NCBI GenBank assembly: GCA_045651685.1 | Contig: JAZRSV010000020.1 | Span: forward strand, 4,449 to 68,448 | Reading direction: 5' to 3' | DNA: 64,000 bases | DNA from: Clostridia bacterium | GTDB lineage: Bacteria > Bacillota > Clostridia > Christensenellales > UBA1242 | Part shown: positions 19,199-55,300 of the stretch, piece after piece | Numbering within the stretch: position 1 is the first letter of the stretch | Layout: each line of letters begins with the position of its first letter | Notes under the pieces: generated by a model | What the model saw: only the letters and a program-made list of their open reading frames with translations | Database searches by the model: none | Told to the model about the DNA's origin: nothing | Program-made: the position numbers and the translations under genes

Positions 19199-22100
19199 TT
19201 AAAAACCTTTTTTGCGTTTTTTTACAGCTACAATAATTATTATTGTCACTATCAACACTACTGCGCCGCCGCCTGCAGCAATATAAATTATCATCATATT
19301 GTTGCCAGCAGGAGCTGTAGGTTCTGGTGTTGTTTCTACTGCGAAGTGTGCTACAAATACTGTATCATCTACTACTGCTGGTAGTGATGTATATACTTGA
19401 GAGGCGCCTTCGATAGTCCAACCGTCAAAAGTATATTTTACCTTTTCGGTATTTTGTCTAGTTGGTATTTCGCCATCATATACAGGTTTCTCATTGTATG
19501 TCAACTCTTGAGTTGTTATAACTGTGTCGCCATCTTTGAAGATGATAGTATAGTATCTAACATCTCTTGCAAATGTAGCTGTTATTGTTAAGTTTTCTTC
19601 TACAGTATCTTGTAGACCTTGCCACTCTACAAAGTTATAAACATGTGTTGCAGTTTGTTGTGTAGGTAGCGCACTAACTAAAGTTGTGCCTATAACAACT
19701 TGATTGCCTTGCACGGTTATTGGAGTGCCATACTTAACGCCTTCTGCTTTGTTAATATCTACATTGCCATAAGCTGTATTGTCAGAAACAAATGCTATCT
19801 CATGCAATGTAAGGCGATAATAAACTTTAAGCACCAAAGAACCATTAGCAGCTATGACACCTTGTGTCGCATTTTGTGTGTTAGTGTCATCAAATACATA
19901 ACCTGTTTTGGTCAACACATCAGCAGTGATCAAAGAATCTGTCACACCTTGTAGTCTTTGTGTTTTTGATGTATCTTGTATAAAGCCACCTTGTAGGTTT
20001 TCGTAATAATGTCTTACAACATATTGAGTATCATCTCTACCAACAAACATAGCTGTTATTGTAGCATGGCCATAGTTGCCTGGTTGCCATTCAAAATCTT
20101 CGTCTACAGTCCAGCTACCATTAGAATGAGTTATAACCCATTTGTCAAACCTATAACCTTGAGCTGCTTCAAACACTGGCAAATCTGATAGTAGTGTTGT
20201 TAGTTCGATATTGTAGTCATAGTCAACAGGAGATCCATTGCCATGGGTACCTGCCTTAAATGTTAACTTATAAGTTATTATTTCGTATCTTGGTGTTAAT
20301 GTAACATTTCCAGTCATGCCTGTACCAACCTCAAAGGTTTCGATTGTTGTACCTCCGAAACGGGTTTGCCATGCTGCATTGTATGAGTTAGCAACAAATG
20401 TATAATGTGTTAGAGTGTATCCATCTTTGATATGATCAGGCAACTCAATGTTTGTTGTCACATTGTATTTTATTGTGATAGGTTCGTCTGCATTGATAGT
20501 CACTGTATATTCTCTATATGCTGCAGAAGCAACGATTTTTATATCGCCTACAGCAGCTGCTTGATATAGTTGAATATAACCACCAGCAGTGCTTACAGCA
20601 TAGCCAGTTTCGATCAAAACATCATCAACATAAACTTGTACAGTGTTAGTTGTAGGATATGTATATTGTACACTATCCCAAAGTAGAGTTAGAGGTATTT
20701 TTAGACCTGTTTTGTACTCGATCTTTGTATAATCTGTTTCGCCATCTTCTGTTATTTCTACACCAGTAAGCTCGTAAGTGATGTCAAAAGCATTTAGTCT
20801 ACCCTCTGCAATAATTTCTAAATCGCCAGCGATAGAGCCTGCTTCGAAGAATAGTCTATTAGAAGTTGCAGCTTTTGTAAAAGTCACATCATCCTCTACA
20901 CCATCTACCTTAAATGTTATATAATCTACATTTAGGTGATAGTCATCGGTGTTTGGTTGTAGATATACATAAAATGGTTCGCCATATAGAGTACTATATG
21001 GGTCATATACTCTGCTGTATACTGTTGCAGATTGTTCTGTTAAGTTTGTTAAAGTATACTTAATGGTATAAGTATCTCTATCGTAAAATAGAACATATAC
21101 TTCTGTACCATAGCCTTGCAAAGTATGTGTTAACACATTGTCCTTGTGGGTACTGTTAAATGTAAAACCTCTTAAGTCTGCAGGGGTTTCGGTTATAGTA
21201 TTCCAAGTTGTGCCAGAGCCTACTACAATATTTTCTGGCAACAATTCATAAGAATCACCAGATAAAGTTTCTGTCCAATATTCGATTGTGTATTGACTTT
21301 GAAGAGCATTATAAACGGCAGTTAGTGTCACATCACCATAATTTTCTGCCTTCCAGCTAAAGGTCTCTCCTGCTACCCAAGAACCAACACTTTCTTTAAC
21401 TTGCCAACAAGCAAATTCATAACCATCATTTAGAGTTGTTGGAGTTTCTAAAGTTGGCATTGTTGTGTCTAAATATGTATAGTGATAATAAGTATTTGAT
21501 AAATTACCAAAATCTGTTACTTCAAGATTGATTGTATACAAATGTAACATAAAGTCTGGTCTTAATGTGATATTGCCATATTCGCTAGGAGAATATATAA
21601 ATATCGATTCTTGATCCCAAGATCCATCTGATTCAACTACCTTCCAAGCATCAAATTCCCAATGATCATCAATATCAATTGTTGGCAAAACAATAGTTGG
21701 TTGTCCGGCAGTATATTCTATAGGTGTCATGTCATAAGTACCATGCTCACCCGCTACAAAGGTAATAGTATATTTTACTTCTTCGTATTGAGCAACTACT
21801 ACGACATCTCCATAAGAACCTACTCCACCCCAAACATAATCGCCAGCTGTCCAGCTACCAACAGGTTCTTGAATAACCCATTTTGTAAATACAAATTGTG
21901 CTGGAGCTGTTGGAGTCTCAAGGTCTTGCATAGTTTCGGTCTCTACAGTATAGTAAAATACTGTCGGACCAGTAAGAGATCCAAACAATGGATCTAAAGT
22001 TATAGTATATCTAGTAAGTTCGTATATAGCAGTGACATCTACATTGCCGTAGTTGCCAGAAGAATTTATTGCAAAGTCTTCGCCTACTACCCAAGAACTA

Positions 22101-24001
22101 TCTGCATCAGTGCTAGTGATTTGCCATTTTACAAAAGTATAATGCTCATCTGGAGTTGGTACTGGCAAGGTAAACGATGAAGAGGTGACCTTATATGTGC
22201 CTCTAGTGATTGATGTAGAGCCATGAAGTCCTGCAGAAAAGTTAATGTTGTAGTTATTTGTTTGATAAGCTGGATTAAGCGAAATACTTCCATAACTGCC
22301 AGCTACCCAAGTATATGTAGATCCATCTTGCCAAGAAGTTTGGGAAATGATCGATGTTACTGTTATTCTCCAATAGCTAAGAGCATAACCTTTTTTTACA
22401 GAAATGATTACATCTTTCATAGGATCTTCTACTGTTTCTCTAGTATAAGTCACTTGTGTTACAGAAGTTGTCACGATAGAGTTCTGTTTAATATTTATTG
22501 TATATTCGGTTGGTATTGCTCTAGCAACAATTTTTAGTTCGCTACACAAAGTTGCTGCTTTGTTAAGAGTTAGCTTATATGCAGAAGATGATATTGACCA
22601 CCCACTTGTTAACTCTACACCGTCAGCGATAACCTTAAAATATTCTCTATCAGTATTAGCAGGCTTGCTATAACCTATGTCTTCGACATATGTTAATATC
22701 ATGTTCAAACCAGTAGTATTATATGTCCAAGTTGTAGGAGCACTATCTATAGTAAATCTGTTAAGATCATATGTTATGTTGATAGTTGTTGTGACAGACT
22801 TTGCTGTTATCTCAATGTCTCCATCAATAATGCCACTTTTGATCCAAAGTCTGTTGCTTGTTGAAGCTACCTCATAATTTTCTTTAATATTTTCTAATAC
22901 AACACCATTTATCTTAATAACAATTTGGTCTTTTAGTAGTCTGTAGTCCTCATGTATAGGATTTAATACTACATACCAAGTATTACCTTGCAATACTTGC
23001 AATGGATCGTATGTGATAGAACCAGCATAAGCTGAATATTCTGTATCTGTTAAGTTGTATGTGATGTGTGCAACTTTTTGAGAACCATTTATATGTACAC
23101 AAAGAACATCTGTCACTTTGTCAGCAGGTATAGTCACGCGACCTGTTGCTTTGTCCCAGATAAAATCTTCTTCTGCCATAAATTCGCCATCACTAGTTGC
23201 GTATGTTATTGCTATTGTATCTGGCAACTCATAAAATTTTTCTGCTGTAACAGTAAAAGATATTTCTTGGCCTAAAGTAATTGCAATATCTTCTTGATCT
23301 GAAGTCACGCGACTAAAGAATGTTTTTAACACTAATGGTTGAGCGTTCCAGATAATTTCGACATTGCCTGTTACATATTGGTTTTTTAATACAACAGTAC
23401 CGGTACTTCTATCATATGTATAAGCTTCGGGATTGTCTAAAAGGCTTACACCACCTACGGCAATTTCGTAAGGAGCTGGATACAAGATAGAGCCTGCAGG
23501 TGCAGAAAACTTTGCACCAACCTGACCAAATCTTTCGATATACATTAAGTCAGACTCGACAATAGCACTAGATGATGTAATTTCTACACTATAGATAGTA
23601 GGTGTCATTTTTGATCTGCAAGATATCTCAATGTCACCAGTTATAGCGTCACCACTAATTATCAATGTACCATTGTAAGAGTCAAAGGTATAAGCATCGC
23701 TAACACTGCCACCAATCATGACAGATATAGACTCATGGTCAAGCTCAACATAACCGGCTCCAAAATCGATATCCATATCAATAGCAAAATCAACACCATT
23801 TGTTGCTGTCATGTGTGATTCTTGATCAACAATGTTAATACCTGTTAGATTATAGGTTACTGTATATGATTCGCCTGCAGCATAGGCACTGCTCGAAGTT
23901 TTTAAGCTAATAAAACTTGCAGCACCAACCATAGATGCTAATAAAAATACGGCTATCAAAAATAAATTAAGTCTCTTATTTAGACTTTTTAATAGTCTCA
24001 T
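19199..24001 (-). CDS. Giant (1600 aa) modular surface protein with Listeria-Bacteroides-type repeats (YxFxxW beta modules) and a C-terminal membrane anchor
   Basis: Start moved to the ATG at 24001 (MRLLKSL), after a GAGGAGGA SD. N-terminal signal peptide. At least 7 modules of the type Y.I.F.AG.HG...Y.F.KW.V..GSW. The C-terminus is MMIIYIAAGGGAVVLIVTIIIIVAVKKRKKGF. Confidence 0.8.
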   Translation of the reverse strand: MRLLKSLNKRLNLFLIAVFLLASMVGAASFISLKTSSSAYAAGESYTVTYNLTGINIVDQESHMTATNGVDFAIDMDIDFGAGYVELDHESISVMIGGSVSDAYTFDSYNGTLIISGDAITGDIEISCRSKMTPTIYSVEITSSSAIVESDLMYIERFGQVGAKFSAPAGSILYPAPYEIAVGGVSLLDNPEAYTYDRSTGTVVLKNQYVTGNVEIIWNAQPLVLKTFFSRVTSDQEDIAITLGQEISFTVTAEKFYELPDTIAITYATSDGEFMAEEDFIWDKATGRVTIPADKVTDVLCVHINGSQKVAHITYNLTDTEYSAYAGSITYDPLQVLQGNTWYVVLNPIHEDYRLLKDQIVIKINGVVLENIKENYEVASTSNRLWIKSGIIDGDIEITAKSVTTTINITYDLNRFTIDSAPTTWTYNTTGLNMILTYVEDIGYSKPANTDREYFKVIADGVELTSGWSISSSAYKLTLNKAATLCSELKIVARAIPTEYTINIKQNSIVTTSVTQVTYTRETVEDPMKDVIISVKKGYALSYWRITVTSIISQTSWQDGSTYTWVAGSYGSISLNPAYQTNNYNINFSAGLHGSTSITRGTYKVTSSSFTLPVPTPDEHYTFVKWQITSTDADSSWVVGEDFAINSSGNYGNVDVTAIYELTRYTITLDPLFGSLTGPTVFYYTVETETMQDLETPTAPAQFVFTKWVIQEPVGSWTAGDYVWGGVGSYGDVVVVAQYEEVKYTITFVAGEHGTYDMTPIEYTAGQPTIVLPTIDIDDHWEFDAWKVVESDGSWDQESIFIYSPSEYGNITLRPDFMLHLYTINLEVTDFGNLSNTYYHYTYLDTTMPTLETPTTLNDGYEFACWQVKESVGSWVAGETFSWKAENYGDVTLTAVYNALQSQYTIEYWTETLSGDSYELLPENIVVGSGTTWNTITETPADLRGFTFNSTHKDNVLTHTLQGYGTEVYVLFYDRDTYTIKYTLTNLTEQSATVYSRVYDPYSTLYGEPFYVYLQPNTDDYHLNVDYITFKVDGVEDDVTFTKAATSNRLFFEAGSIAGDLEIIAEGRLNAFDITYELTGVEITEDGETDYTKIEYKTGLKIPLTLLWDSVQYTYPTTNTVQVYVDDVLIETGYAVSTAGGYIQLYQAAAVGDIKIVASAAYREYTVTINADEPITIKYNVTTNIELPDHIKDGYTLTHYTFVANSYNAAWQTRFGGTTIETFEVGTGMTGNVTLTPRYEIITYKLTFKAGTHGNGSPVDYDYNIELTTLLSDLPVFEAAQGYRFDKWVITHSNGSWTVDEDFEWQPGNYGHATITAMFVGRDDTQYVVRHYYENLQGGFIQDTSKTQRLQGVTDSLITADVLTKTGYVFDDTNTQNATQGVIAANGSLVLKVYYRLTLHEIAFVSDNTAYGNVDINKAEGVKYGTPITVQGNQVVIGTTLVSALPTQQTATHVYNFVEWQGLQDTVEENLTITATFARDVRYYTIIFKDGDTVITTQELTYNEKPVYDGEIPTRQNTEKVKYTFDGWTIEGASQVYTSLPAVVDDTVFVAHFAVETTPEPTAPAGNNMMIIYIAAGGGAVVLIVTIIIIVAVKKRKKGF

Positions 24002-24099
24002 TTTTATCCTCCTCACTAGATGTATATATTATATTTATATAATAACTAATTTTACATATATTAGGCAACCAAATAGCTCCTAAAAGTTAGTTATTTTTA

Positions 24100-28949: not shown

Positions 28950-29414
28950 ATGGAAGAGTACGAAAAATTATCTGACAATTGTAAAATTCGTTGGATAGAA
29001 AATTTTGAATTAACTACACAAAAACACACTCAAGTTAGCGCATATGTTTTTAACGAAAATAACGAACTACTAATTGTACGCAACGAAAATACTTGGACCG
29101 TACCTGGTGGGCACCCAGAAAATACCGAAAAACCTAGCGAAACTTTAGCTAGAGAGCTTATGGAAGAAGCTTGTGTGACTCTAAAAGAAGAACAATATAT
29201 CGGCGCTGTAGAAGTTGTAGAAAATGGCGAAACATACTATCAACTACGCTATGTCGCTAGAGTTAACGAGTTGTTGCCTTTTAGCCAAGAATGGGAAATT
29301 AGCGAAAGACTTTTTGTCAGTCTTGAAGATTTGCCAAACTACATCAAGTGGTCAAAAGGTATAACCTTTGCAGCACAAATACAATCTGCGCTAAAAGCAC
29401 TAAAAAATAAATAA
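28950..29414 (+). CDS. NUDIX hydrolase
   Basis: Nudix box GGHPENTEKPSETLARELMEEACV. Confidence 0.8.
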   Translation: MEEYEKLSDNCKIRWIENFELTTQKHTQVSAYVFNENNELLIVRNENTWTVPGGHPENTEKPSETLARELMEEACVTLKEEQYIGAVEVVENGETYYQLRYVARVNELLPFSQEWEISERLFVSLEDLPNYIKWSKGITFAAQIQSALKALKNK

Positions 29415-29453
29415 TACAAATAAAAAAGATACCAAATAATTGGTATCTTTTTT

Positions 29454-31016
29454 TTATTCTACAGATTCTGGTGTCAATATTTCTATTTGACCATTTGTTT
29501 CATAATATTTTTTTAGATTGTCTATGTTATATACTTCACCAGAGTCAAAACCTTCACCAAACTCATACCATCTTGCATCATAAAAAGTTAATGTAGTATT
29601 GTTTAAGTCGCTTGCAAATATATATGTTGAATATACAACCCTTTCTATCCTGTTATTAACAATTAATACTGAAGCGTCTTGGACTGCATCGATACTTAAA
29701 ATTCCACTTGCTTCGTGTGCGCAGTTGTTAGCAATTATTATTTTGCCAGAAACTGCTCGACCTGATGAATGACCCGAAATAGAAGCAACTACACCTGATT
29801 GATATGAAGTGCAATTTACAACTTTTAGATTATTAACACCTTTTGTAATTTCTACACCAGCACTGCCAATGCAGGCAAATTCACAATTTTTTACAACTAT
29901 ATTTTCTGCCTTTACCCCTATTCTTACGCCTGAAGCACTACCATGTGCTTCTGAAGTAAAATGACAGTTTTGGACTGTAAAGTTTTTGATAGAATGTTTA
30001 TAAGTGCCACCATTGTCAGCATTGCTAATATCGACAAAAGATCTATCTGCTTCTGGTGAAACAAAATTAATATTTTGTATTTTTATATTTTCATACTTAC
30101 TATTATTTTGGCTTAAGGCAGAAACAGATATAGATATATCGTAGTCCTCACCATCGCTTGTTATGACAATATTTTCCATTCCATGGTCAAAAACCATACC
30201 TTGTGTATTTTCTACATAAAGATCCTTCTTGATGTATATTACTTTATTACTAATATCATATCCCTCAAATTGAAGACCATCTGTCATAATAACATATTCA
30301 CTTTCGTCCATTGTTTGCCATTCGCCAATATGTTGGCAAGTAGGACACACTCTAGCCTTTTGCAATTTGTTATCTTCAGTACATGAGTAGTTGTATTCAT
30401 ATTCAAAGCCAGTAAGACTTGCACTTTCTGCTTCAGAATACATATCAATATCTATAGAACCTTCAAATGTTTGTGAACCATAAAAATCTTGTGTTGCAAG
30501 CATTCTTAATTCTAGATATATAGTGCCACCTTTGTGTACAACCAAATAATCATCTACTTTTGCAGTAAAGTTTGTACCATTAATAGAATAGTACCATATA
30601 GTCATAAAGTCATCTACAGTATTGTTGATATCATTTACTTTGATGATAAGATCTGAATTGTCCGAATATGTTGAGTTGTTTTTTACTTCAAAATAAAGCT
30701 TTGCTGACTGTTCATCATTGTTTACAGTTATTGGATCTTCAAATTCTAGTGTAATTTCTTCGTCTGCTCTTTCATCATCAAAACTAATAGCACTTAAAGA
30801 TTCTTGCACTTCGTCACTGCCTGCACTATAAGACGAACCTTTGATTGTAGCATTAACATATCTACCACCACTAATGTTAACATTAAAACCTGCATTGTAC
30901 TTATAGTGGTTTCTTGCGATAGCCCATACAGTTGCGCCAACACCTGCTACACATGTAGTGACTGCAACAACGCAAATAAGTACCTTAAAGATAGACCATG
31001 ATATTTTCTTTTTCAC
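29454..31016 (-). CDS. Membrane-anchored surface protein with C-terminal parallel beta-helix repeats
   Basis: N-terminal TM/signal (VLICVVAVTTCVAGVGATVWAI). C-terminal repeats (VQNCHFTSE..., VKNCEFACIG..., VVNCTSYQSG..., IANNCAHE...). Confidence 0.6.
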   Translation of the reverse strand: MKKKISWSIFKVLICVVAVTTCVAGVGATVWAIARNHYKYNAGFNVNISGGRYVNATIKGSSYSAGSDEVQESLSAISFDDERADEEITLEFEDPITVNNDEQSAKLYFEVKNNSTYSDNSDLIIKVNDINNTVDDFMTIWYYSINGTNFTAKVDDYLVVHKGGTIYLELRMLATQDFYGSQTFEGSIDIDMYSEAESASLTGFEYEYNYSCTEDNKLQKARVCPTCQHIGEWQTMDESEYVIMTDGLQFEGYDISNKVIYIKKDLYVENTQGMVFDHGMENIVITSDGEDYDISISVSALSQNNSKYENIKIQNINFVSPEADRSFVDISNADNGGTYKHSIKNFTVQNCHFTSEAHGSASGVRIGVKAENIVVKNCEFACIGSAGVEITKGVNNLKVVNCTSYQSGVVASISGHSSGRAVSGKIIIANNCAHEASGILSIDAVQDASVLIVNNRIERVVYSTYIFASDLNNTTLTFYDARWYEFGEGFDSGEVYNIDNLKKYYETNGQIEILTPESVE

Positions 31017-31189
31017 TTTTACCCTCCATCAATATAAATATTTACATAAAAATTATATCAAAATTTTATACTTTTGCACAACCGTTTGCAAGCAGTTTAT
31101 ACTCAAGGAATATTTTTATTAAACAAAAAAAACACACTTACCGTTTGCAAGTGTGTTTTTGTTAATTTATATCACTTATTATCAATATT

Positions 31190-31843
31190 TTATTTTCTTT
31201 TTAGCGCGCTATTTACTACGGCAGGTATTTCTCTTGCGTCTGTGACATGATATGTGTTGATGCCTAAAGCTTTTGCAGGGTCTAGATCGCTTGTTATACT
31301 ATCGCCAAACACATACGCATTGTTTGGTTTGCAATTTTCTCTTTGCAAGATGCTTTGATAATAATGCTTTTTTGAAGGGTCTTTAACTGTAAATTTGTTG
31401 CTAATAATTTTTGTAAACCATTTTGGATTAACATTAATACGCTTCATAAAGTAGTTAATGTGTGTAGGTGCAGAGTTGCTAACAACATAAACAGGATATT
31501 GCTTGCAAAGTTCTTGCAAAAAGTTTGGATCTACAGTCATGTCGTCATGTATAACAACTGGTTCTCTAGTCACATTTTGCCAGCGCCAAAAATCTCTTGC
31601 AGAAATGTCCCATGTAGGATATTTTTTTCTAAATATATAGATATGTTTGATTAGGTCTGCCCCAACAAATATCTCTTGCCATGATGGATTTTCTTTTACT
31701 ATAACATCGTATTGCTCTTGTGATAGTCTTGGCAAAAAACATTTTTTGTGTCTGTGTACAAACTCTGGTAAAAGTGAAAAGATGTCATCGCCAGAATAAA
31801 ATGTACCATCAAAATCAAATATTATAACTTGTTTGTCTCTCAT
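31190..31843 (-). CDS. HAD-superfamily phosphatase
   Basis: Motif I FDFDGT, motif II VVSNS, motif IV GDSITSD. GGAGA SD. Confidence 0.78.
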   Translation of the reverse strand: MRDKQVIIFDFDGTFYSGDDIFSLLPEFVHRHKKCFLPRLSQEQYDVIVKENPSWQEIFVGADLIKHIYIFRKKYPTWDISARDFWRWQNVTREPVVIHDDMTVDPNFLQELCKQYPVYVVSNSAPTHINYFMKRINVNPKWFTKIISNKFTVKDPSKKHYYQSILQRENCKPNNAYVFGDSITSDLDPAKALGINTYHVTDAREIPAVVNSALKRK

Positions 31844-31857
31844 ATTGTCTCCGATAT

Positions 31858-31888
31858 TTTGACAAATTATATCATAGTGGCAATTTTT
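31858..31888. repeat. Left copy of the inverted repeat bracketing the RT unit (TTTGACA + 9-nt insert + ATAGTGGCAATTTTT)
   Basis: Read directly. The 15-mer at 31874-31888 is the exact reverse complement of 33268-33282. Confidence 0.9.
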
Positions 31889-31894
31889 AGTCTA
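31866..31894 (-). promoter_or_regulatory. Predicted promoter of the HAD gene (overlaps the RT stop codon)
   Basis: The minus strand reads TAGACT (31894-31889), the 17-nt spacer AAAAATTGCCACTATGA, then TATAAT (31871-31866). Confidence 0.5.
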
Positions 31895-33115
31895 GTTGTT
31901 TTGCGCTTTATTAATTTTAACAAACTTATGATATTCGTTTACTAAACTTCTAAAGCCATATTGTTTAATTTGCTCGTAAGTAAGGTTATAATTCTTTTTG
32001 CTAAACTTGCCCGTCTGCAAATATCTTATATATTGCACTAAGTATTCATCAATAATTTTTAAGCTTTTGTGAGTGTTAATCACAGGGAAAAACCATTTGC
32101 TCCAAGTAAGATCTTTTGTGTTGGTTTCGCGATAAAATTTGTTATTAAAAATGCGCAAAAGAACTTTTGTTGCATGCTCTGCTGTTTTGTTGTTTTTTGT
32201 GCGCCAACGATACAAAGCTCTTGCCTTGCGTCTAATTTTGTCTTTGATTTTTTTTACTGTTATCATAGACAAGTCTATATTGCCACCGCCATACTCAAAG
32301 CCCAAAAAGCTCCATGTTTGACCAGGCAAAAACATGCTTTCTTTGTTAGGGTTTATTTGCAAATTTTTTGCTTGCAATTCGGTTAAAATGTGTTGCTTAT
32401 ATACCTCTAATTTTTCTTTCGAATCTGCAAATATAATGATATCGTCAGAATATCTTGCGTAGGTTATGTTGTTGTCAAAAAAATATTTATCTAGGTCCAT
32501 CAAATATACATTAGCAAGAAATGTTGATAGACATGTGCCGGCCATGGCGCCACGCTTTTCTGATATAATATTGCCATCAACATCTTTGCTTGCATCTACT
32601 GTTAATATGCTTTTTATAAAATTATACAATTTGTTATCATCAAAAAGCACATTTTGCAACATAGGCAAAAGCTGTTCTATATCAATCGTATTAAAATAAT
32701 TGCTTATATCTAATTTATAGGCGTACAAATTATCAATATTGCTTGTAGATAAGATGTTAAAAAATGCTTTTTTTACTGTGCAGTTTTTTCTAAACGAATA
32801 GCAATTTTGCGCAAAGCATTGGTCATACTTGTCCATAAGGTACAAAACAAACTTAAGCACAACGCTTTCGTTATATTCATAAGTATATACAACTCTTTTT
32901 TTGTTGCTGCCGGTTTTGTTAATAAAACTTTTTGTTGGCAACGAAAAAGTATAGGTACCTTGTTTGATACCATCTGCTATATCATAATATTTTTTGCCGA
33001 TGACAAAGTCGACAAGGGCTTGCTCTTCGCACTTTGATAGATGTGATTTTTCTATTTTGTATTGCAAAAATTCTGCCCATTTGCTCTCATCTAATAAATA
33101 ATCTAAAATACTCAT
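31892..33115 (-). CDS. Stand-alone reverse transcriptase (RT domain plus thumb only), non-retron, group-II-intron-like/UG-type; class unresolved
   Basis: RT motifs: KKRVVYTY (1/2), LDISNYFNTID (3/A), RGAMAGTCLSTFLANVYL (4/B), YARYSDDIIIFA (5/C, YxDD), LQINPNKE (6/D), WSFLGFEY (7/E). There is no endonuclease or maturase D/En region and no retron VTG motif. Start placed at the ATG at 33115 (MSILDYLLDE). The track's TTG at 33154 is an alternative. Confidence 0.85.
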   Translation of the reverse strand: MSILDYLLDESKWAEFLQYKIEKSHLSKCEEQALVDFVIGKKYYDIADGIKQGTYTFSLPTKSFINKTGSNKKRVVYTYEYNESVVLKFVLYLMDKYDQCFAQNCYSFRKNCTVKKAFFNILSTSNIDNLYAYKLDISNYFNTIDIEQLLPMLQNVLFDDNKLYNFIKSILTVDASKDVDGNIISEKRGAMAGTCLSTFLANVYLMDLDKYFFDNNITYARYSDDIIIFADSKEKLEVYKQHILTELQAKNLQINPNKESMFLPGQTWSFLGFEYGGGNIDLSMITVKKIKDKIRRKARALYRWRTKNNKTAEHATKVLLRIFNNKFYRETNTKDLTWSKWFFPVINTHKSLKIIDEYLVQYIRYLQTGKFSKKNYNLTYEQIKQYGFRSLVNEYHKFVKINKAQNN

Positions 33116-33253
33116 ATTGCATAAAAAAAGAAAGGAAATTTGCTTTGAAAGCAATGTATTGCTACAAGACTGAACATGTTTTGGTTATCTGCAAAACCGT
33201 TATATAAAACATGCTTCGCCCCACCACAGATGCCTAATATGCGTTCCTTTCTA
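33116..33253 (-). ncRNA. Structured ~138-nt 5' leader / candidate RT-associated non-coding RNA
   Basis: The predicted TSS is ~7 nt after the -10 box. AGAAAGGAA (33252-33244) pairs with UUCCUUUCU (33137-33129), closing the leader. An internal hairpin CAUGUUUU...GGUU...AACC AAAACAUG maps to 33213-33175. A further AGCAA/UUGCU hairpin is present. The AUG is preceded by a polypyrimidine tract with no SD. Confidence 0.45.
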
Positions 33254-33259
33254 TTTATT

Positions 33260-33288
33260 ATTATATCAAAAATTGCCACTATTGTCAA
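33260..33288 (-). promoter_or_regulatory. Consensus sigma-A promoter of the RT unit
   Basis: The minus strand reads TTGACA (33288-33283), the 17-nt spacer ATAGTGGCAATTTTTGA, then TATAAT (33265-33260). Confidence 0.65.
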
Positions 33289-33289
33289 A
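33268..33289. repeat. Right copy of the inverted repeat bracketing the RT unit
   Basis: The plus strand AAAAATTGCCACTATTGTCAAA is the reverse complement of TTTGACAATAGTGGCAATTTTT. Confidence 0.9.
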
Positions 33290-33432
33290 CAACCTACATT
33301 TAGCCAGCAAAAACACACGCCAAGGTGTACAAAACCACCTGCAAAAAACTTGATAATAAGCGTTTTTTGTTATGTCTTGCTTTGACATATTATTTTTGTT
33401 TTGATATGGTAAAAACACGGAGGGTAAAAAAT

Positions 33433-33840
33433 ATGTTTAAGGTAAATATTCATCCATTACAAGAAGATAAATATGCAGAACTAACCCGCGTTGTTTGTGT
33501 TGCTAGGTATAATGGCAAGTGGGTTTTTTGCAAACACAAAGAGCGCGACACTTGGGAGATACCAGGTGGACACATCGAACCAGGCGAAGACTGGACACAA
33601 GCAGCAACAAGAGAATTGTTTGAAGAAACTGGCGCTACTCAAGTAGAACTAGAACAAGTTAGTATGTATTCTATATCTACTTATGGTTTGTTGTGTTATG
33701 CCGAGATAAAAGAGTTTGAGCCATTGCCAGAGTCAGAGATAGAACTTGTAGCCTTGTTTGATGACTTGCCACAAGAGCTAACTTATCCTGATGCTCACAC
33801 ATTATTTTTTAATACAGTAAAAGATTATAAAAAACTTTAA
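33433..33840 (+). CDS. NUDIX hydrolase
   Basis: Nudix box GGHIEPGEDWTQAATRELFEETG. Start moved to the ATG at 33433 after a GGAGGG SD. The promoter is TTGACA-N17-TATGGT at 33383-33411. Confidence 0.85.
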   Translation: MFKVNIHPLQEDKYAELTRVVCVARYNGKWVFCKHKERDTWEIPGGHIEPGEDWTQAATRELFEETGATQVELEQVSMYSISTYGLLCYAEIKEFEPLPESEIELVALFDDLPQELTYPDAHTLFFNTVKDYKKL

Positions 33841-33946
33841 TCTAATAAAAAGCACTTGCAGTTTTTTGCAAGTGTTTTTTTTGCGTATTGTTGACAATCA
33901 AAATTTGTGATACTAAAATAAAAGTATAATAATTTAGGAGAAAGTT

Positions 33947-34432
33947 ATGTTAACAACTCAATTTTTGCAAGCTACTTTGCAAGATGTAGAAAATATCATG
34001 TCACTATATAGATATGTTATAAAAACAACCTTTACTACCTGGGACGACAACTACCCTGACAAAGAACTTATAGTGCGAGATATCAACAACAAAAACTTGT
34101 TTGTACTAAAACACAATAACAACATTATTGCCGTTAGCTTTGTCGGATATAAAGAAGAAGAAAACGAAAACTGGACTTATCCACTACTTTCGCCAATTGG
34201 AGTTGCGAGAATTTGTGTTAGTCCCGACTATCAAGGTCAAGGCATTGGCACACACTTTATGAAACAGCTTATTAACATTGCAAAAGAGCGTGGCGCAGAT
34301 GGCATGCACTTTCATGTGTGTACACAAAATCCTGCCGCGATGAAAATGTACGAAAAAGTTGGCTTTGTCAATTGTGGGCTTGGCAAGTCAAATTATGGCT
34401 TTGATTATTACAAATACGAGCAAGTATTTTAA
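33947..34432 (+). CDS. GNAT N-acetyltransferase
   Basis: Acetyl-CoA motif A: QGQGIGTHFMKQLINIAKERG. Confidence 0.8.
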   Translation: MLTTQFLQATLQDVENIMSLYRYVIKTTFTTWDDNYPDKELIVRDINNKNLFVLKHNNNIIAVSFVGYKEEENENWTYPLLSPIGVARICVSPDYQGQGIGTHFMKQLINIAKERGADGMHFHVCTQNPAAMKMYEKVGFVNCGLGKSNYGFDYYKYEQVF

Positions 34433-34482
34433 TACAAATAGCTGTTATTGTATTTTTTGTAAAGAGATGATATAATAAAAGT

Positions 34483-34941
34483 ATGGATAGAATAAAATTT
34501 ATAGATTATTGCAAAGAATATTGCACACAACTAAATACCTGGCACAAGATAGAACAACAACAAGGCTATAACGGGCTAAATCAATTTGTAGTACTTGATG
34601 GCACTTTGCTTGGCGATTATATGCAATACATTAGCGAAAATATCGTTGACATCAACTGCCAACTAGCAATGTTAGAAGATAAGTTAGTAGGCTTTATTTG
34701 CTACACTCAAGAAAATGACGCTGCACATATCGAGATAATGGGCACCAACCCAGAAATGCGTGGCCAAGGCATCGCAAAAAACATACTAACAACTTTTAAG
34801 CAAGATATGTCACAGCAAGGTGTTGACAAAATAACACTCGAAGTAAGAAAAAACAACGAGTCTGGCATAAAAAGTTTTTCTAAAGTGGCAGAAAAAAGTG
34901 CATCTCAACCTAACCAAAATTATATTAGCTTTGAGATGTAG
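34483..34941 (+). CDS. GNAT N-acetyltransferase
   Basis: RGQGIAKNILTTFKQDMSQQG motif A. Leaderless-type start. Confidence 0.78.
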   Translation: MDRIKFIDYCKEYCTQLNTWHKIEQQQGYNGLNQFVVLDGTLLGDYMQYISENIVDINCQLAMLEDKLVGFICYTQENDAAHIEIMGTNPEMRGQGIAKNILTTFKQDMSQQGVDKITLEVRKNNESGIKSFSKVAEKSASQPNQNYISFEM

Positions 34942-34967
34942 TAAACTTACAAAAGGACACAACTATT

Positions 34968-35438
34968 ATGGAGATACGCCTAATAAAAGAAGACGAAATA
35001 CAAGATGTTTATAATCTTATCAAAAAAACTGTACAAATAAGTTTTAAGACATATTATCCACAATCTTCTATCGACTATGTTATCGAATCACTTAGTCCCG
35101 AAACATTAAAAAGAAGATCTGGCTGGACACACTTTTATATAATAAAAGACTGCGACCAAATTGTAGCTTGTGGTGCAATAGGACCTTACTGGGACAGCCA
35201 GACCGAAAGTGGTTTGTTTAATATATTTGTTGACCCAGACCATCAAGGCAAAGGTTATGGTCGCAAACTAATGCAAACACTAGAAGCTGACGAATATGCT
35301 TTGAGAGCAGATCGTATAGAAATACCTGCAAGTCTAGTTGCAATACCATTTTATAGAAAAATGGGATACAAACATAAAAATGACGAGCTAATCTTCGAAG
35401 ATGGACATATAAAACTAGAAAAGTACACAAAAAAGTAA
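34968..35438 (+). CDS. GNAT N-acetyltransferase
   Basis: HQGKGYGRKLMQTLE motif A. Confidence 0.8.
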   Translation: MEIRLIKEDEIQDVYNLIKKTVQISFKTYYPQSSIDYVIESLSPETLKRRSGWTHFYIIKDCDQIVACGAIGPYWDSQTESGLFNIFVDPDHQGKGYGRKLMQTLEADEYALRADRIEIPASLVAIPFYRKMGYKHKNDELIFEDGHIKLEKYTKK

Positions 35439-35533
35439 TATAAAGCTGCCAAAACACATTTTGCATAGCAAGATGTGTTTTTTTGTTAATAATTTTTATT
35501 TATTAAAGCAGCAAAGTATGTTATACTCAAGGT

Positions 35534-37531
35534 ATGAAGATTTTATCACCTGCAGGCAATTTTGATAGTCTAAAAGCTGCTGTATACAACGGCGCTGATG
35601 AAGTTTATGTTGGCATAAACTCTTTTAACGCGCGCAATAATATTGATGGCTTTGACATAAACACTCTAAAAGATGCTGTTGTCTTTGCACACATCTTTGG
35701 AGTTAAAGTGCACCTTGCTATCAATATTTTGTTTGACAATACCGAAATAAAACAAGCACTAGACAATATAGTGACCGCTTATAATTATGGCGTAGATGCT
35801 TTTATCATACAAGACATTGGCCTTATTAGTTTGGTCAAACAACACTATCCAAACATACCAGTGCATGCTAGCACCCAGATGGGTCTACACAACTACGAAG
35901 GTATCAAAGCACTAGAAAAGTATAATATCGAAAGAGTTGTGCTTGCTAGAGAAACACCTTTTGACGAGGTAAAAAGAATAAACAACAACTCTAATGTTGA
36001 GTTAGAATATTTTGCCCAAGGCGCTTTGTGCGTTGCTTTTAGCGGCAACTGCTATTTGAGTTCTTACCTATGCGATGCAAGTGGCAATCGTGGCAAGTGC
36101 AAACAGCTTTGTAGACTAGCTTACACTTTGCAACACAACAACAAAAATATCAAAACTGGATATCTTTTGAGTGCAAAAGATTTTTGCATGATTGATAAAC
36201 TTGCCTTACTGCAACAATGCGGTATAGATGCAATAAAGATAGAAGGTAGAGCTCGTAGACCTTATTATGTAGCGACTACCACCAAACAATATTATAACGC
36301 AATCAATAATTTGCCATACGATATAGACCACATTAAGTTGGGTTTTAATAGAAATTATACCCACGGCTACTTTGACGGCAATGACAAAATAATATCTACT
36401 TACAACAACCATATTGGCATTTGTGTCGGCAAAATAACCAAAGTTGTTGGTGGCAAAACTTTTAGTGAAGTATATTTTAGTAGCAATAGGTTGTTAACAC
36501 CAAAGTCTACCTTTAAGTTATATGATCAAGACACAGAACGCTCTACTCTAACTGCTTACGACCTAAAGAGGGTTGACAACAATACATACAAACTTACTAC
36601 AACTCAAAAAGCATGTGTAGGCGACAATATACATCTTATATTGGATGCCGAGCTAGAACAACAAACTTTGCTCACTACCAAAAAGCGCAATATTGATATA
36701 ACACTATCTTTGCAAGTAGACAAACCAATACAAGCAACAGTAAATATCAATAATCAAACTTTGACAATAACTGGTGACATATGCGCCCCAGCTCAAAAAC
36801 AACCAATAACTCTCGAAGATTTGCAAAAAAACTTTAATAAGCACGAACTGTTTGTTGGCAATATAACTATAGACAAACTAGACAATGTCTTTATGCCAAA
36901 GCAACAACTAAACAATTTTAGGCGAGAAGTTTTTGATCAGATATATAGCACATTTTTATTGCCAGCTCACAACGAAAAACTTACAAGCATACAAAGCGGC
37001 TATAAGGCGAAGGTTTTTGACAACTTTGTTTTTGTGACAGATATTGAGCAAAACTTTGAAAAAGACAATGTTATTTATTCGCCAGAAGTTTATACTTTGC
37101 AAGATGTACAAGCTTTTGTCGATAAGTGCAAAACCCTTAACAAAACACCATATCTTGACACACCAAACTTTGCTTTGCAAAACGATATACAATTGTTAAA
37201 AGATATAATAGACAAAACTAATATTGCAATAGTTGCCAATAACTATTATGCCACTACTTTAACAGACAATTATATTGTAGGCGGCGGATTAAATATTTAT
37301 AACGACTACGCAGCAAGTGTTTATGACAAACCTGTTATATTTGCAGAAGGTGAGTTAAAACACAACTTTGCATATATGACATTAAGACATTGTCCATTAA
37401 AAAATCATTTGTGTGCAACTTGCGACAAATGCCCTTATGATGGCAATTATACCTATCGCATGGACAATGGCAAAATACTTAAGTTAAGACGCAAAAAGCT
37501 GTCTACATGCACATTTTATCTTGTTGACTAA
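35534..37531 (+). CDS. U32-family peptidase-like protein (long form)
   Basis: N-terminal GADEVYVG...FNAR, the E..R..Y block (IKIEGRARRPYY) and the Cys cluster (CYLSSYLCDASGNRGKCKQLC) are typical of U32. Confidence 0.82.
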   Translation: MKILSPAGNFDSLKAAVYNGADEVYVGINSFNARNNIDGFDINTLKDAVVFAHIFGVKVHLAINILFDNTEIKQALDNIVTAYNYGVDAFIIQDIGLISLVKQHYPNIPVHASTQMGLHNYEGIKALEKYNIERVVLARETPFDEVKRINNNSNVELEYFAQGALCVAFSGNCYLSSYLCDASGNRGKCKQLCRLAYTLQHNNKNIKTGYLLSAKDFCMIDKLALLQQCGIDAIKIEGRARRPYYVATTTKQYYNAINNLPYDIDHIKLGFNRNYTHGYFDGNDKIISTYNNHIGICVGKITKVVGGKTFSEVYFSSNRLLTPKSTFKLYDQDTERSTLTAYDLKRVDNNTYKLTTTQKACVGDNIHLILDAELEQQTLLTTKKRNIDITLSLQVDKPIQATVNINNQTLTITGDICAPAQKQPITLEDLQKNFNKHELFVGNITIDKLDNVFMPKQQLNNFRREVFDQIYSTFLLPAHNEKLTSIQSGYKAKVFDNFVFVTDIEQNFEKDNVIYSPEVYTLQDVQAFVDKCKTLNKTPYLDTPNFALQNDIQLLKDIIDKTNIAIVANNYYATTLTDNYIVGGGLNIYNDYAASVYDKPVIFAEGELKHNFAYMTLRHCPLKNHLCATCDKCPYDGNYTYRMDNGKILKLRRKKLSTCTFYLVD

Positions 37532-52346: not shown

Positions 52347-55300
52347 ATGAAAAAACTTTTTAGAACATTAAAATTTTTAGGAGCATACCTGTTAATCACG
52401 ATAGTCACTGCGGCTGGCGTGGTCTTTTTGGTGCCTGTAAGCGGATCAAGTGCTAACATCGGCGCACCTGGACAAGACTCATTTACCACTCCGATTGAAA
52501 GCAATTTTACAAAAATTGTTAACAATCTGATGCAGCTAAAAGACTTTGCTGTTGATGCAGATATCAAAGTGACACTACCTAATGACCAAAAGATAACTCT
52601 TGATATGATCGCAGGTGTACACGCAACTGCAGGTTTTGGTACAGTTGCCGCCAATGCTCAACTAAACCTAACCTACGGACAAGACAATTATAATATGTCT
52701 TTTGTATTTGTAGACAATCAACTATACCTACAACTTAATGACATATTAGTACCACAAGAATTTGATAGCAACTTTGCTATAAAATCACAACAAGTACAAG
52801 ATATAAAATTTACAACAAGCGTAAATACCCTTACAGAAGCTATCGGACAAATAATGTCTTTACTTAATATTGATATGTCTATGGGCGACAGTTTTGCAAA
52901 CTTTGACATGTCTATGATAGCTACAATGTTAGAAGATTATCAAGATTCTCCTACAGAATATGGCTACGATGTAAGCATTGTAGTTATGGGTCAATCAATT
53001 TATCTAACAACCGATCACGACTTTAATATTACAGCAGTACATATCCCAACAATTAATCTTGACGGCACAAAACTTAATATTGATCTTACATTAAAAAGAT
53101 ACGAACAAGTTATCGAAGTTGCTGCCCCACAAGATAGCCAATCTTATTTAGACCTAGCAAAGGTGACTAACCTAATTGGTTTTGCTTCTTCTGCAATTGA
53201 CAATAAGTTTGTTTCTACCAACATCAACGCATCTTTTGCAGGTACAAACATTGCATTAGATACTACAATTGATTTTGCAGACGGTATCAAACTTGTTGCA
53301 ACTAGCAACTCACTTGGCGATTCGCTAAAAGTTATGTATTACAACGATACTTTGTATATTGCTTTTGGCAATGTAAAAGTAAGCACAACTTTTGACGAGT
53401 TAAAAGAGTTTGCAAACTACTCAATCGACACAATCTTGCCTCAACTAAAAGGCATGAATATTAATAGGCTAACAAGCATCATTGATTATGTACAAGATTT
53501 AACAAACAATGTTAGCTTACCTACTATATCAACACCTAGCATTGCTTCTATGATAGGTCTTGCAGCATTTATCAATACCGATGGCGACAACCTAACATTT
53601 GCTTTGCCTGGCATTGTTGACTCTACCATCGTTGTAAACAACGGCAACATAACAGACATATCTATTGTTAATAGCAACTTTGAAGTTAGCTTAAACAACA
53701 TAGATATCACTAGACGCGATGTTATATATGACATACAAGGTTATACTCCACTACAAAACATACTACCTACAGTAAAAGCTGCTATCAACACTTTAACTTG
53801 CCAAGGTATCAACGGAGATATTACCTTTACATACGGCGACCAAACTTATACACTTAACCTAAAAGCAAAATTGCAAGCAACAGACTTAACATTAAGCTTG
53901 AGCACTGTTGTATTTGGCAAAGTTGTACAAATAGATATTCAAAACGAAACTTTGTATCTAACAATTGATCAAACAAAAACAAAAATACCTTTTAACAAAG
54001 CTCAAGATTTGTTAGGTTTGATATCAACACTATTTGATATAAAACTACCAACAATTGATACAAATATCAATCTTAAACTACAAGATATTTCGTTAGACTT
54101 TATTTCTACACTTACAGCAACTGGCGACAACTTAACTATCACTGGCAAAGACTATACTGTTTCGCTTAACAACAAAAATGGATATATCAACAAAGTTAAC
54201 TTAAACATCGCCGATATCGCACTAGAATTTTTGACACTAAAGTGCGGCAATGTAAATATTGATACTATTGACGATACACAATATACTCATTACGAAGACA
54301 TCTTTAACTTTATATCAAACATAAAAGACCTTACTACAAAAACAAACTTTGACTTGACTGTATCAGCACAAGCAAGATACAACGGTCAAATGTTTGATGT
54401 AAACATACTAGCTACTGTTGATACAAAAACTTTTGACATAACATTGCTTGTAATGCTAAACATCAATGGAGAGACTTACACTGTTAATGCAGCATTTGTA
54501 GACAAAGTTTTGTATATCAACTATCAAGATCTAAAAGTAAAAGTTGACAAACAACTATTAGACACTATCGATGGCATTATTAACAACATTATACCAAAAT
54601 ATATCAACATTGATAATATAAGAGAACTTTGGAACAGCTTAACCAATGTAGATATTAACATGACAATGCCTACAATAGAGTTAACAATACCACAAATTAT
54701 AGAACTTGTAAAAACTTATACCAATGCATTGCGTAGCATTGCATTTGAAGGCAATACACTAAATATTTCGGTTAACCTTGGTTCTATACTAAATATTAAT
54801 CAAACACTAAACCTATCTGTAAAAGCAACTTCTGAATATGTAGAAGTTGGAATTGCAGAATTTGCAATCGATGCTGCTTCTGTTCAATTTGTTGCAACTA
54901 TTAGCGTTAATGATGATGAGATACTAGCACCATACGATGCAAACACTTACAAAGACATAAACGATTATCTAAAACTTGTAGAAGTATTAGACAATACTAT
55001 ATCAAGCAACTATTTTGACATCGGCGCAACTGTTATTACTGGCGACTACAGAATAGATACAAACATTATCGCAGACCTAACTGATGATTATAAATTTGCA
55101 ATAAGCACTGATAGTTTGGGCAGCCCACTTGATATCAAATATGTACCAAGCGCAGCTGGCAAACAAGATGTTTTCTTTGTGACATTTGGCAACCTAAAAC
55201 TTAACTGCTCAATTGAACAACTAAAACAACTTTATAACTATCTAACCGATACTGTACTAAAAGAAGTCAAAGGTCTAGACATTGCAGAATTGCAACCTAT

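Follow-up and report, generated by a model that had tools for sequence, protein, structure and literature searches.

A 64,000-nucleotide stretch of the genome of a Clostridia bacterium (contig JAZRSV010000020.1, positions 4,449 to 68,448; hereafter the window) carries on its minus strand a gene for a stand-alone reverse transcriptase (RT), preceded on the same strand by a structured non-coding RNA (ncRNA). The RNA and the enzyme form a real pair, but both parts are of catalogued families and do not constitute a new class: the RT is assigned by profile to group UG26 of the UG/Abi RTs (PMC9226505) and the leader to the RT-5 RNA family, Rfam RF03026 (PMC5737381). The view taken in the initial annotation, that the locus fits no described class, is therefore superseded. 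By analogy with characterised relatives, the locus is probably a module in which the UG26 RT templates DNA from the RT-5 RNA, of ~125-130 nt, with the DNA product acting in trans. What is added here is the explicit link between UG26 and RT-5, a helix that closes the RNA domain, a pseudoknot, a high frequency of a partner gene among relatives, and the minimal two-part variant found in the window.

The reverse transcriptase belongs to the UG26 group

The open reading frame (ORF) starts with the ATG at 33115 and stops at 31892-31894 on the minus strand, giving a product of 407 residues and not the 408 first reported. The YSDD and FLGF-type motifs recorded at that time are both present, the latter as SFLGFEY. 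Features of the gene are as follows.

31892 to 33115, minus strand: UG26-group reverse transcriptase gene, 407 codons plus stop (PADLOC RT_UG26, Pfam RVT_1)
32441 to 32452, minus strand: catalytic YSDD, residues 222-225; RYSDD is invariant in 16 diverse homologues
31931 to 31933, minus strand: Tyr395 in the C-terminal LVNE[YF][YH] motif, a speculative candidate priming residue by analogy with DRT9 and DRT10

Comparison of the protein with the PADLOC profiles revealed a match to RT_UG26 (PDLC03764) with a score of 522.9 bits (E 1.1e-157), in which residues 1-399 align with positions 1-396 of the 398 in the profile. The next-best profiles were UG27 (129 bits), UG4 (99), UG17 (93) and Drt9 (93), whereas the retron-type RT models scored far lower than UG26. 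NCBIfam cut-offs were not reached by Drt2 (62.8 bits versus 390), Drt3a, the retron St85 model (52 bits versus 235) or the group II intron RT model TIGR04416 (110.5 bits versus 300, as a partial match only), consistent with the earlier description of a stand-alone RT of neither retron nor intron type with a structured RNA on the same strand. RVT_1 was the sole Pfam domain detected, indicating that the RT has no fused domain, as had been supposed. Indeed, the Pfam scan and an AlphaFold2 model (pLDDT 90.2, pTM 0.85) both describe a compact enzyme without additional known domains, which is the class 2 architecture. These comparisons place the window RT, over its full length, in UG26, which is among the class 2 UG/Abi groups; it resembles the other members in its full-length profile match, its length of ~400 residues and its lack of fused domains. 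UG26 was defined by Mestre et al. (2022; PMC9226505) from 35 members, nine of which adjoin a COG2852/YcjD-like protein (cluster 1531); the association of the group with defence was inconclusive, and no ncRNA was reported.

When the model was compared with solved structures, the top Foldseek hit was the group II intron RT GsI-IIC (TM 0.75), with DRT9 (0.56-0.63), G2L4 and DRT2 (0.59) next in rank, and a sequence search of the PDB agreed in placing group II intron RTs as the best matches. These results, together with the partial match to TIGR04416 and the names of some relatives in databases ('group II intron reverse transcriptase domain-containing protein'), could suggest that the gene is what remains of a group II intron, either degenerate or reduced to its ORF. 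However, the TIGR04416 score, at 110 bits, falls far short of the cut-off of 300, and the full-length match goes to UG26. Moreover, no Rfam intron family was detected at E <= 5 within positions 29000-36000, in keeping with the absence of intron RNA remarked on previously, and the conserved RNA that is present is a different one, located on one side of the gene only. An intron remnant is thus extremely improbable and can be considered effectively refuted, leaving membership of UG26 as the assignment of the RT.

The LVNE[YF][YH] motif was identified in 113 of the best 120 of 3320 homologues, mostly 4-15 residues from the C-terminus; the window version reads NEYH and contains Tyr395. Since the C-terminal 119 residues gave no match to solved structures, a role for this tyrosine in priming is proposed purely by analogy.

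The leader is an RT-5 RNA

Weinberg et al. (2017; PMC5737381) reported 19 RT-associated motifs without an assigned function, RT-5 among them, and guessed at roles in retrons or diversity-generating retroelements. The RNA upstream of the window RT is, by covariance model, an RT-5 RNA: it scores above the gathering threshold of RF03026, matches the whole 104-position model and adjoins the RT gene, the match ending 20 nt 5' of the start codon on the same strand. The elements of the domain, in the order of transcription after the first two lines, are listed below.

33129 to 33252, minus strand: structured ncRNA domain (extended RT-5 RNA), from the 5' to the 3' strand of closing helix P0; 116.5 bits with the covariance model built here (R1)
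33136 to 33235, minus strand: RF03026 match forming the core of the domain; 64.9 bits, gathering threshold 45.7, E 2e-11, full model 1-104
33244 to 33252, minus strand: P0 5' strand, AGAAAGGAA, all purine, pairing with 33137-33129
33232 to 33242, minus strand: P1, a small hairpin of GCA...UGC type, with only 2 bp (G-C and C-G) in the window
33225 to 33231, minus strand: pseudoknot 5' strand, AUCUGU(G), pairing with GCAGAU at 33192-33187
33166 to 33222, minus strand: long bent hairpin P2-P3-P4, from the Rfam structure line and covariation
33187 to 33193, minus strand: pseudoknot 3' strand, (U)GCAGAU, within the 8-nt loop of P4, supported by covariation
33150 to 33163, minus strand: P5 hairpin, variable in sequence and length, with covariation and imperfect local alignment
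33138 to 33149, minus strand: single-stranded linker UUCAAAGCAAAU between P5 and P0, with conserved UUCAAR, a speculative candidate template
33129 to 33137, minus strand: P0 3' strand, UUCCUUUCU, all pyrimidine, the perfect complement of AGAAAGGAA

The 130-nt RNA folds with a free energy of -33 kcal/mol (z = -2.99), and none of 200 shuffled sequences was as stable. Both the closing helix and the long hairpin are included in the minimum-energy fold. The extended hairpin (~33214-33174) and the small hairpin (33163-33150) that had been predicted at the outset are likewise present, the long hairpin being interrupted by a conserved GAAGC/GUUCAG internal loop and a variable A/U-rich 5' bulge.

RNA and RT are coupled across phyla

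Homologues of the RT numbered 3320 in the protein database at E <= 1e-10; nearly all of the best 120 are ~400 residues in length, and the closest among the matches listed is 64% identical. A scan of one genome per species confirmed at least 489 matching stretches, and 80 loci were kept, from Clostridia, Bacilli, Lachnospiraceae, Oscillospiraceae, Bacteroidales/Prevotella, Actinobacteriota and one Acidobacteriota metagenome-assembled genome, with gut or rumen as the source in most cases. RNA homologues were then sought in these loci with a profile hidden Markov model followed by a covariance model built from 47 upstream regions. In 78 of the 80 loci exactly one RNA was identified, preceding the RT gene in the same orientation, with no further copies in the 0.96 Mb of locus DNA. 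RF03026 itself scored above gathering in 9 of 11 diverse relatives tested. These data show, at the level of sequence, that RNA and RT are near-obligately coupled across phyla. Neither of these frequencies is apparent from the original description of UG26, in which the partner was found in 9 of 35 members and no ncRNA was recorded; here the RNA is present in 78 of 80 loci and the partner, described below, in 64 of 79.

The two loci without an RNA are L004, which lies on a truncated contig, and L064. The latter encodes a UG26-like RT (45% identity); among loci with such an RT and a complete upstream region, it alone lacks both the RNA and a partner gene, in this case within 13 kb. A separate observation concerns locus L059, where an Rfam group II intron D1-D4 match (L059:16-83) is followed by a 463-residue ORF (L059:128-1519) that clustered with the UG26 RTs by single-linkage BLAST; it lies ~4.5 kb upstream of the UG26 RT and is apparently unrelated to the module.

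Covariation supports a closing helix and a pseudoknot

Conservation of the structure was assessed on a covariance-model-based alignment of 79 sequences, to which the counts below refer, with pairing partners slid by 1-3 columns as controls. Standard pairs occupy 88% of cells, compared with 42-53% in the slid controls, and both partners have changed in 37 of 42 pairs. The leader covariation called for in the initial annotation is thus present among homologous loci.

The domain is shown by this covariation to be closed by a long purine:pyrimidine helix, P0, which joins both ends of the RNA and encloses the small hairpin P1, the long bent hairpin, P5 and a single-stranded linker of 9-12 nt. The window strands AGAAAGGAA and UUCCUUUCU, noted as complementary from the beginning, are perfectly so, and the helix is conserved: 90.9% of P0 cells are paired, and 8 of its 9 pairs are compensated, as in the versions AGAAAGGAA/UUCCUUUCU, AAAAAGGGGA/UCCCCUUUUU, ACAGAGGGAAA/UUUCCCUCUGU and GGAGGGGAA/UUCCCCUCC. 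Alignment-free pairing gave 9-19 contiguous bp for P0 across relatives, the 9 bp of the window being in the shortest class. The strand bias is also a property of the family (5' strand 98% purine, 3' strand 97% pyrimidine), and in many relatives the U run past P0 pairs with a 5' A run.

The second feature is a pseudoknot between the single strand that follows P1 (consensus RCCUGYG) and the 8-nt loop of P4 (UUGCAGGY). It is 98% paired, with changes on both sides in 5 of 7 pairs and a core of 6 bp that has no unpaired cell; the window pairing of AUCUGU with GCAGAU (33231-33226 with 33192-33187) is a compensated form of the consensus GCCUGC/GCAGGC. RF03026 extends from within P1 to the initial bases of the P0 3' strand. 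The model consequently does not cover P0, nor can it represent the pseudoknot. Covariation therefore supports two features beyond the Rfam model, namely the closing helix and a pseudoknot of 6-7 bp.

Of the remaining helices, P3 and P4 are 94% and 95% paired, with most pairs compensated, and all 6 pairs of P5 covary, though the local alignment is imperfect. P1, which is weak in the window, is 99% paired in the family, and its three pairs all covary. A scan of all column pairs also uncovered a candidate tertiary pair, represented in the window by 33225 and 33172 (minus strand), between the base after the pseudoknot 5' strand and the C of GUUCAG; it is G-C in 56 and A-U in 10 sequences. The same scan revealed no covarying partner for the variable bases of the linker, which consists of UUCAAR plus 3-6 variable nucleotides and, measured without alignment, is 9-12 nt long in 73 of 79 loci and 12 nt in the window. 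An apparently fixed linker of 10 nt (73 of 79 loci in the covariance-model alignment) was discarded as forced by the model, given the 9-12 nt obtained without alignment.

A helix joining the ends of an RNA located upstream of an RT is also a feature of retron msr-msd RNAs, and retron roles have been suggested for RT-1 to RT-19 (PMC5737381). Conceivably, then, P0 could represent the a1/a2 inverted repeats, with a conserved G priming from its 2'-OH to yield branched multicopy single-stranded DNA; the A-Y-G-C conserved directly after the P0 5' strand would be in keeping with this. However, that G, two nucleotides after P0, is not free as a branching G would be but takes part in a covarying P1 pair in 99% of cells, the pair closing P1 being G-C in 74, G-U in 3 and A-U in 2 of the sequences. 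In addition, a long hairpin of msd type is missing, retron RNAs have nothing equivalent to the pseudoknot, and the RT lies outside the retron clade according to the St85 and PADLOC scores given above. A retron-like mode of action is accordingly very unlikely, and a UG26 module using the RT-5 RNA in another manner is preferred.

Promoter, leader and start codon

The RNA carries its own consensus sigma-70 promoter, as revealed by a promoter scan in which TTGACA-N17-TATAAT, with a TG extension, was the top-scoring site of the region and matched the consensus at 12 of 12 positions, confirming the promoter proposed earlier.

33283 to 33288, minus strand: -35 box TTGACA of the RNA/RT promoter, 12/12 consensus with 17-nt spacer
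33260 to 33265, minus strand: -10 box TATAAT, TG-extended, from the promoter scan

P0 begins 8 nt downstream of the -10 box, and transcription thus probably starts at, or 1-2 nt before, position 33252. TTGACA-N17 promoters were recognised by eye at an equal distance from P0 in L001-L009 and L072. At the other end of the domain, the P0 3' strand ends 13 nt before the AUG of the RT gene, with the U run continuing to 33123. No purine-rich Shine-Dalgarno (SD) sequence precedes this AUG in the window, and to that extent the SD-less start described before is correct; however, several relatives have a GGAG or GAGG SD, indicating that the SD-less start belongs to the subclade of the window and not to the family.

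The position of the RNA raises the possibility that it acts mainly in cis, as an autoregulatory or ligand-sensing 5' leader that controls read-through into, or translation of, the RT gene, as opposed to serving as template or scaffold. The RNA is always directly upstream of the RT gene on the same strand, no canonical terminator was found between the two, and the window AUG lies 13 nt past P0, behind a U run and without an SD, such that P0 and the U run could feasibly serve as an attenuator. Against this, the distance from P0 to the RT start varies among relatives from 7 to 584 nt, with unrelated inserts in several Bacteroidales loci; many relatives have a normal SD after the RNA; and the RNA of 64 of 79 loci is internal to an operon, behind the partner gene. 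Furthermore, the characterised class 2 UG RTs all use an adjacent RNA as template. The variable distance and the frequent operon position render a purely cis-regulatory leader distinctly unlikely, although regulatory and template roles could coexist, being not mutually exclusive. In Bacteroidales loci L029, L031, L036, L047, L051 and L078, the ~85-140 nt between the RNA and the RT start hold an insert with inverted GACACGAGACACGG...CCGTGTCTCGTGTC repeats around a G/C-rich core, which resembles a hairpin-forming repeat element or a terminator.

A partner gene is usual in the family and missing from the window

A gene for a small protein of ~120-200 residues immediately precedes the RNA, in the same orientation, in 64 of 79 loci. 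The protein, whose C-terminal domain is conserved and whose N-terminus varies, matches the PADLOC profile RTasCOG2852 (E down to 8e-8) and has no Pfam match. The C-terminal domain displays the motifs PY.F,.ML, INFY and PNE..YV..RI (L008-L080; for example L012:5286-5834, L022:5241-5828 and L049:5313-5837). Since no obviously invariant acidic/lysine catalytic triad is evident, the partner may not be an active PD-(D/E)xK nuclease. Judged from sequence, the usual form of the UG26 system is therefore three-part, comprising partner, RNA and RT.

The window does not conform to this arrangement, in that neither tblastn nor a profile search located a partner gene, which is an accessory and non-universal feature of relatives. 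The partner is also missing from the closest relatives of the window, L001-L007, and, as judged by eye, from L072. The window accordingly represents a minimal variant of RNA plus RT. The label 'solitary' initially given to the RT therefore holds for this subclade but not for most relatives.

Proposed mechanism and comparison with known systems

Class 2 UG RTs use ncRNA templates, according to three reports (10.64898/2026.05.04.722794; PMC12483538; 10.1101/2025.10.16.682844). DRT2 copies its RNA by rolling circle; DRT9 uses a U tract to make poly-dA, with C-terminal tyrosines as primers; and DRT10 makes tandem repeats from an A-B-A' template beside a boundary hairpin, priming from a C-terminal Ser or Tyr (PMC12483538; 10.1101/2025.10.16.682844). 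DRT11, for its part, corresponds to UG5. UG26 is a class 2 UG/Abi RT as are DRT2, DRT9 and DRT10, and the likeness to ncRNA-templated DRT systems that was originally drawn is for this reason apt.

By analogy with these three systems, the UG26 RT would bind the RT-5 RNA as a scaffold and would copy a short internal stretch of it into DNA. The best guess for the template is the linker adjoining the inner end of P0, in which case P0 would sit like a primer-template duplex and hairpin P5 would form the 5' boundary, while the conserved C-terminal tyrosine may act as the primer for synthesis. The resulting DNA would act in trans, most likely against phage, given the antiviral precedent set by the family. 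In most relatives the COG2852-like partner, of Vsr/restriction-endonuclease fold, would take part as well; the window module lacks it.

Comparison with individual systems yields a mixed picture. DRT2 (UG2) is remote by profile, as the Drt2 score indicates, and no neo-like stop-free frame is evident in the RNA. A DRT2-like endless ORF was considered and rejected: the domains are 117-179 nt long and not multiples of 3, and concatenation leaves only 20 of 79 open, on no consistent strand. One open frame over ~129 nt is expected by chance. DRT9 (UG28) is similar in having an RNA upstream of a class 2 RT, two components and conserved tyrosines near the C-terminus, and is the closest solved DRT fold (TM 0.56-0.63). 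It differs in that the Drt9 profile, at 93 bits, aligns only with residues 46-296, and the RNA architectures are unlike, with a pseudoknot and closing helix in RT-5; nor was a conserved unpaired run of four or more U, as for a poly-U template of DRT9 type, found inside the RT-5 domain. DRT10 (UG17) shares a class 2 RT, an ncRNA of ~130 nt and a C-terminal candidate priming residue and, in the window, a short single strand beside a hairpin with a possible A-B-A' repeat. However, the UG17 profile reaches 93 bits, compared with 523 for UG26, the A-B-A' repeat is not consistently 3 nt or longer in relatives, and in place of the SLATT protein of DRT10 the partner, where present, is COG2852-like, with no SLATT neighbour seen here. 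UG27, the next-best profile at 129 bits, also has a conserved ncRNA, but is borne by gut phages with two other conserved genes.

The linker region of the window reads UUUC-AAAGCAAA-UUUC (33150-33135), which is an A-B-A' pattern, and such patterns also occur in some clades, for example GAUUU...GAUUU in L069. With a repeat that shrinks to 2 nt and surroundings rich in U and C, however, the pattern is indistinguishable from composition, and is best regarded as a lead and not a result. If the linker does serve in this way, the DNA product would be tandem repeats of TTTGCTTTGAAA-like units. A more specific version of the model, in which P0 as core-enclosing helix, the pseudoknot, P5 as boundary and a 9-12-nt A-B-A' template constitute a telomerase-RNA-like core that is copied repeatedly into tyrosine-primed tandem-repeat DNA, is tentative and, on present evidence, unlikely. 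Were it true, UG26 and RT-5 would together represent an uncharacterised DRT type, of which the window is a minimal form working without a partner.

Several observations weigh against a templating, antiviral module. The template, primer and product are themselves guesses from analogy. No experiments on UG26 or RT-5 were found in the searchable literature, nor did the literature search return a paper giving a function for UG26, a function for RT-5 or a DRT number for UG26, and the defence prediction for UG26 in Mestre et al. (2022; PMC9226505) was inconclusive. The A-B-A' repeat is only 2 nt (UC) in many relatives, Bacteroidales included, and, within the family, P1 is at its weakest and P0 at its shortest in the window. 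The genomic context lends no support to a defence role: no enrichment of defence islands was evident among 136 immediately flanking proteins, and no UG26 members were identified in IMG/VR, INPHARED phages or PLSDB plasmids, where only distant RTs of <=30% identity occur.

Some of these points would fit an RT-RNA particle that is real but has a chromosomal role other than defence, for instance in DNA repair or maintenance, given the Vsr-fold partner. PADLOC matches (E <= 1e-5) were obtained for ~10 of the 136 flanking proteins, 3 of these being partner proteins that had escaped the filter, and the Pfam content of the flanks is that of housekeeping genes (ferredoxin/LUD, TrkH, SIS and ABC families). 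The window copy shows neither synteny with relatives nor hallmarks of mobile elements, and no member was found on a phage or plasmid. Conversely, all UG/Abi groups tested to date are antiviral, and the patchy spread of the module across Firmicutes, Bacteroidota, Actinobacteriota and Acidobacteriota, in gut and rumen, with no conserved neighbourhood, is typical of defence modules that move horizontally. A non-defence role therefore appears rather unlikely, and a template-directed module acting in trans, most likely against phage, remains the favoured reading.

Two gut-phage sequences are of separate interest: MT835776.1 and PQ571274.1 (Bacteroides phage BS-TP1) contain full-length but distant RT matches of 21-24% identity that are possibly of UG27 type, the RT-like region of BS-TP1 being annotated as 'tail protein'.

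Neighbourhood of the window locus

The genes around the window locus are mostly housekeeping, as described previously, and no conserved neighbour other than the partner was detected among the related loci. Synteny between the window and its relatives is restricted to a NUDIX hydrolase gene at 28950-29414 (plus strand), whose product is 63% identical to a NUDIX protein encoded ~5.5 kb downstream of the RT in L005. A second NUDIX hydrolase gene, at 33433-33840 (plus strand), is divergent from the RNA promoter and has a TTGACA-N17-TATGGT site at 33382-33410. It is followed at 33947-35438 (plus strand) by three consecutive ORFs of 152-161 residues that resemble GNAT-type acetyltransferases, an identification made from sequence alone. 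Two genes downstream of the RT, with a HAD gene between, 29454-31016 (minus strand) encodes a 520-residue protein with an N-terminal membrane anchor and a repetitive, possibly beta-helix-like sequence. Very large ORFs, of 1605 and 2372 residues, are located at 19199-24016 (minus strand) and 52347-59465 (plus strand), respectively.

Significance

Every class 2 relative of UG26 characterised so far has brought to light a new mode of making DNA, namely gene synthesis by DRT2, poly-dA by DRT9 and telomerase-like repeats by DRT10. At 1.4 kb and with a consensus promoter of its own, the compact two-part variant in the window lends itself to use as a construct for phage assays and cDNA sequencing in this group.

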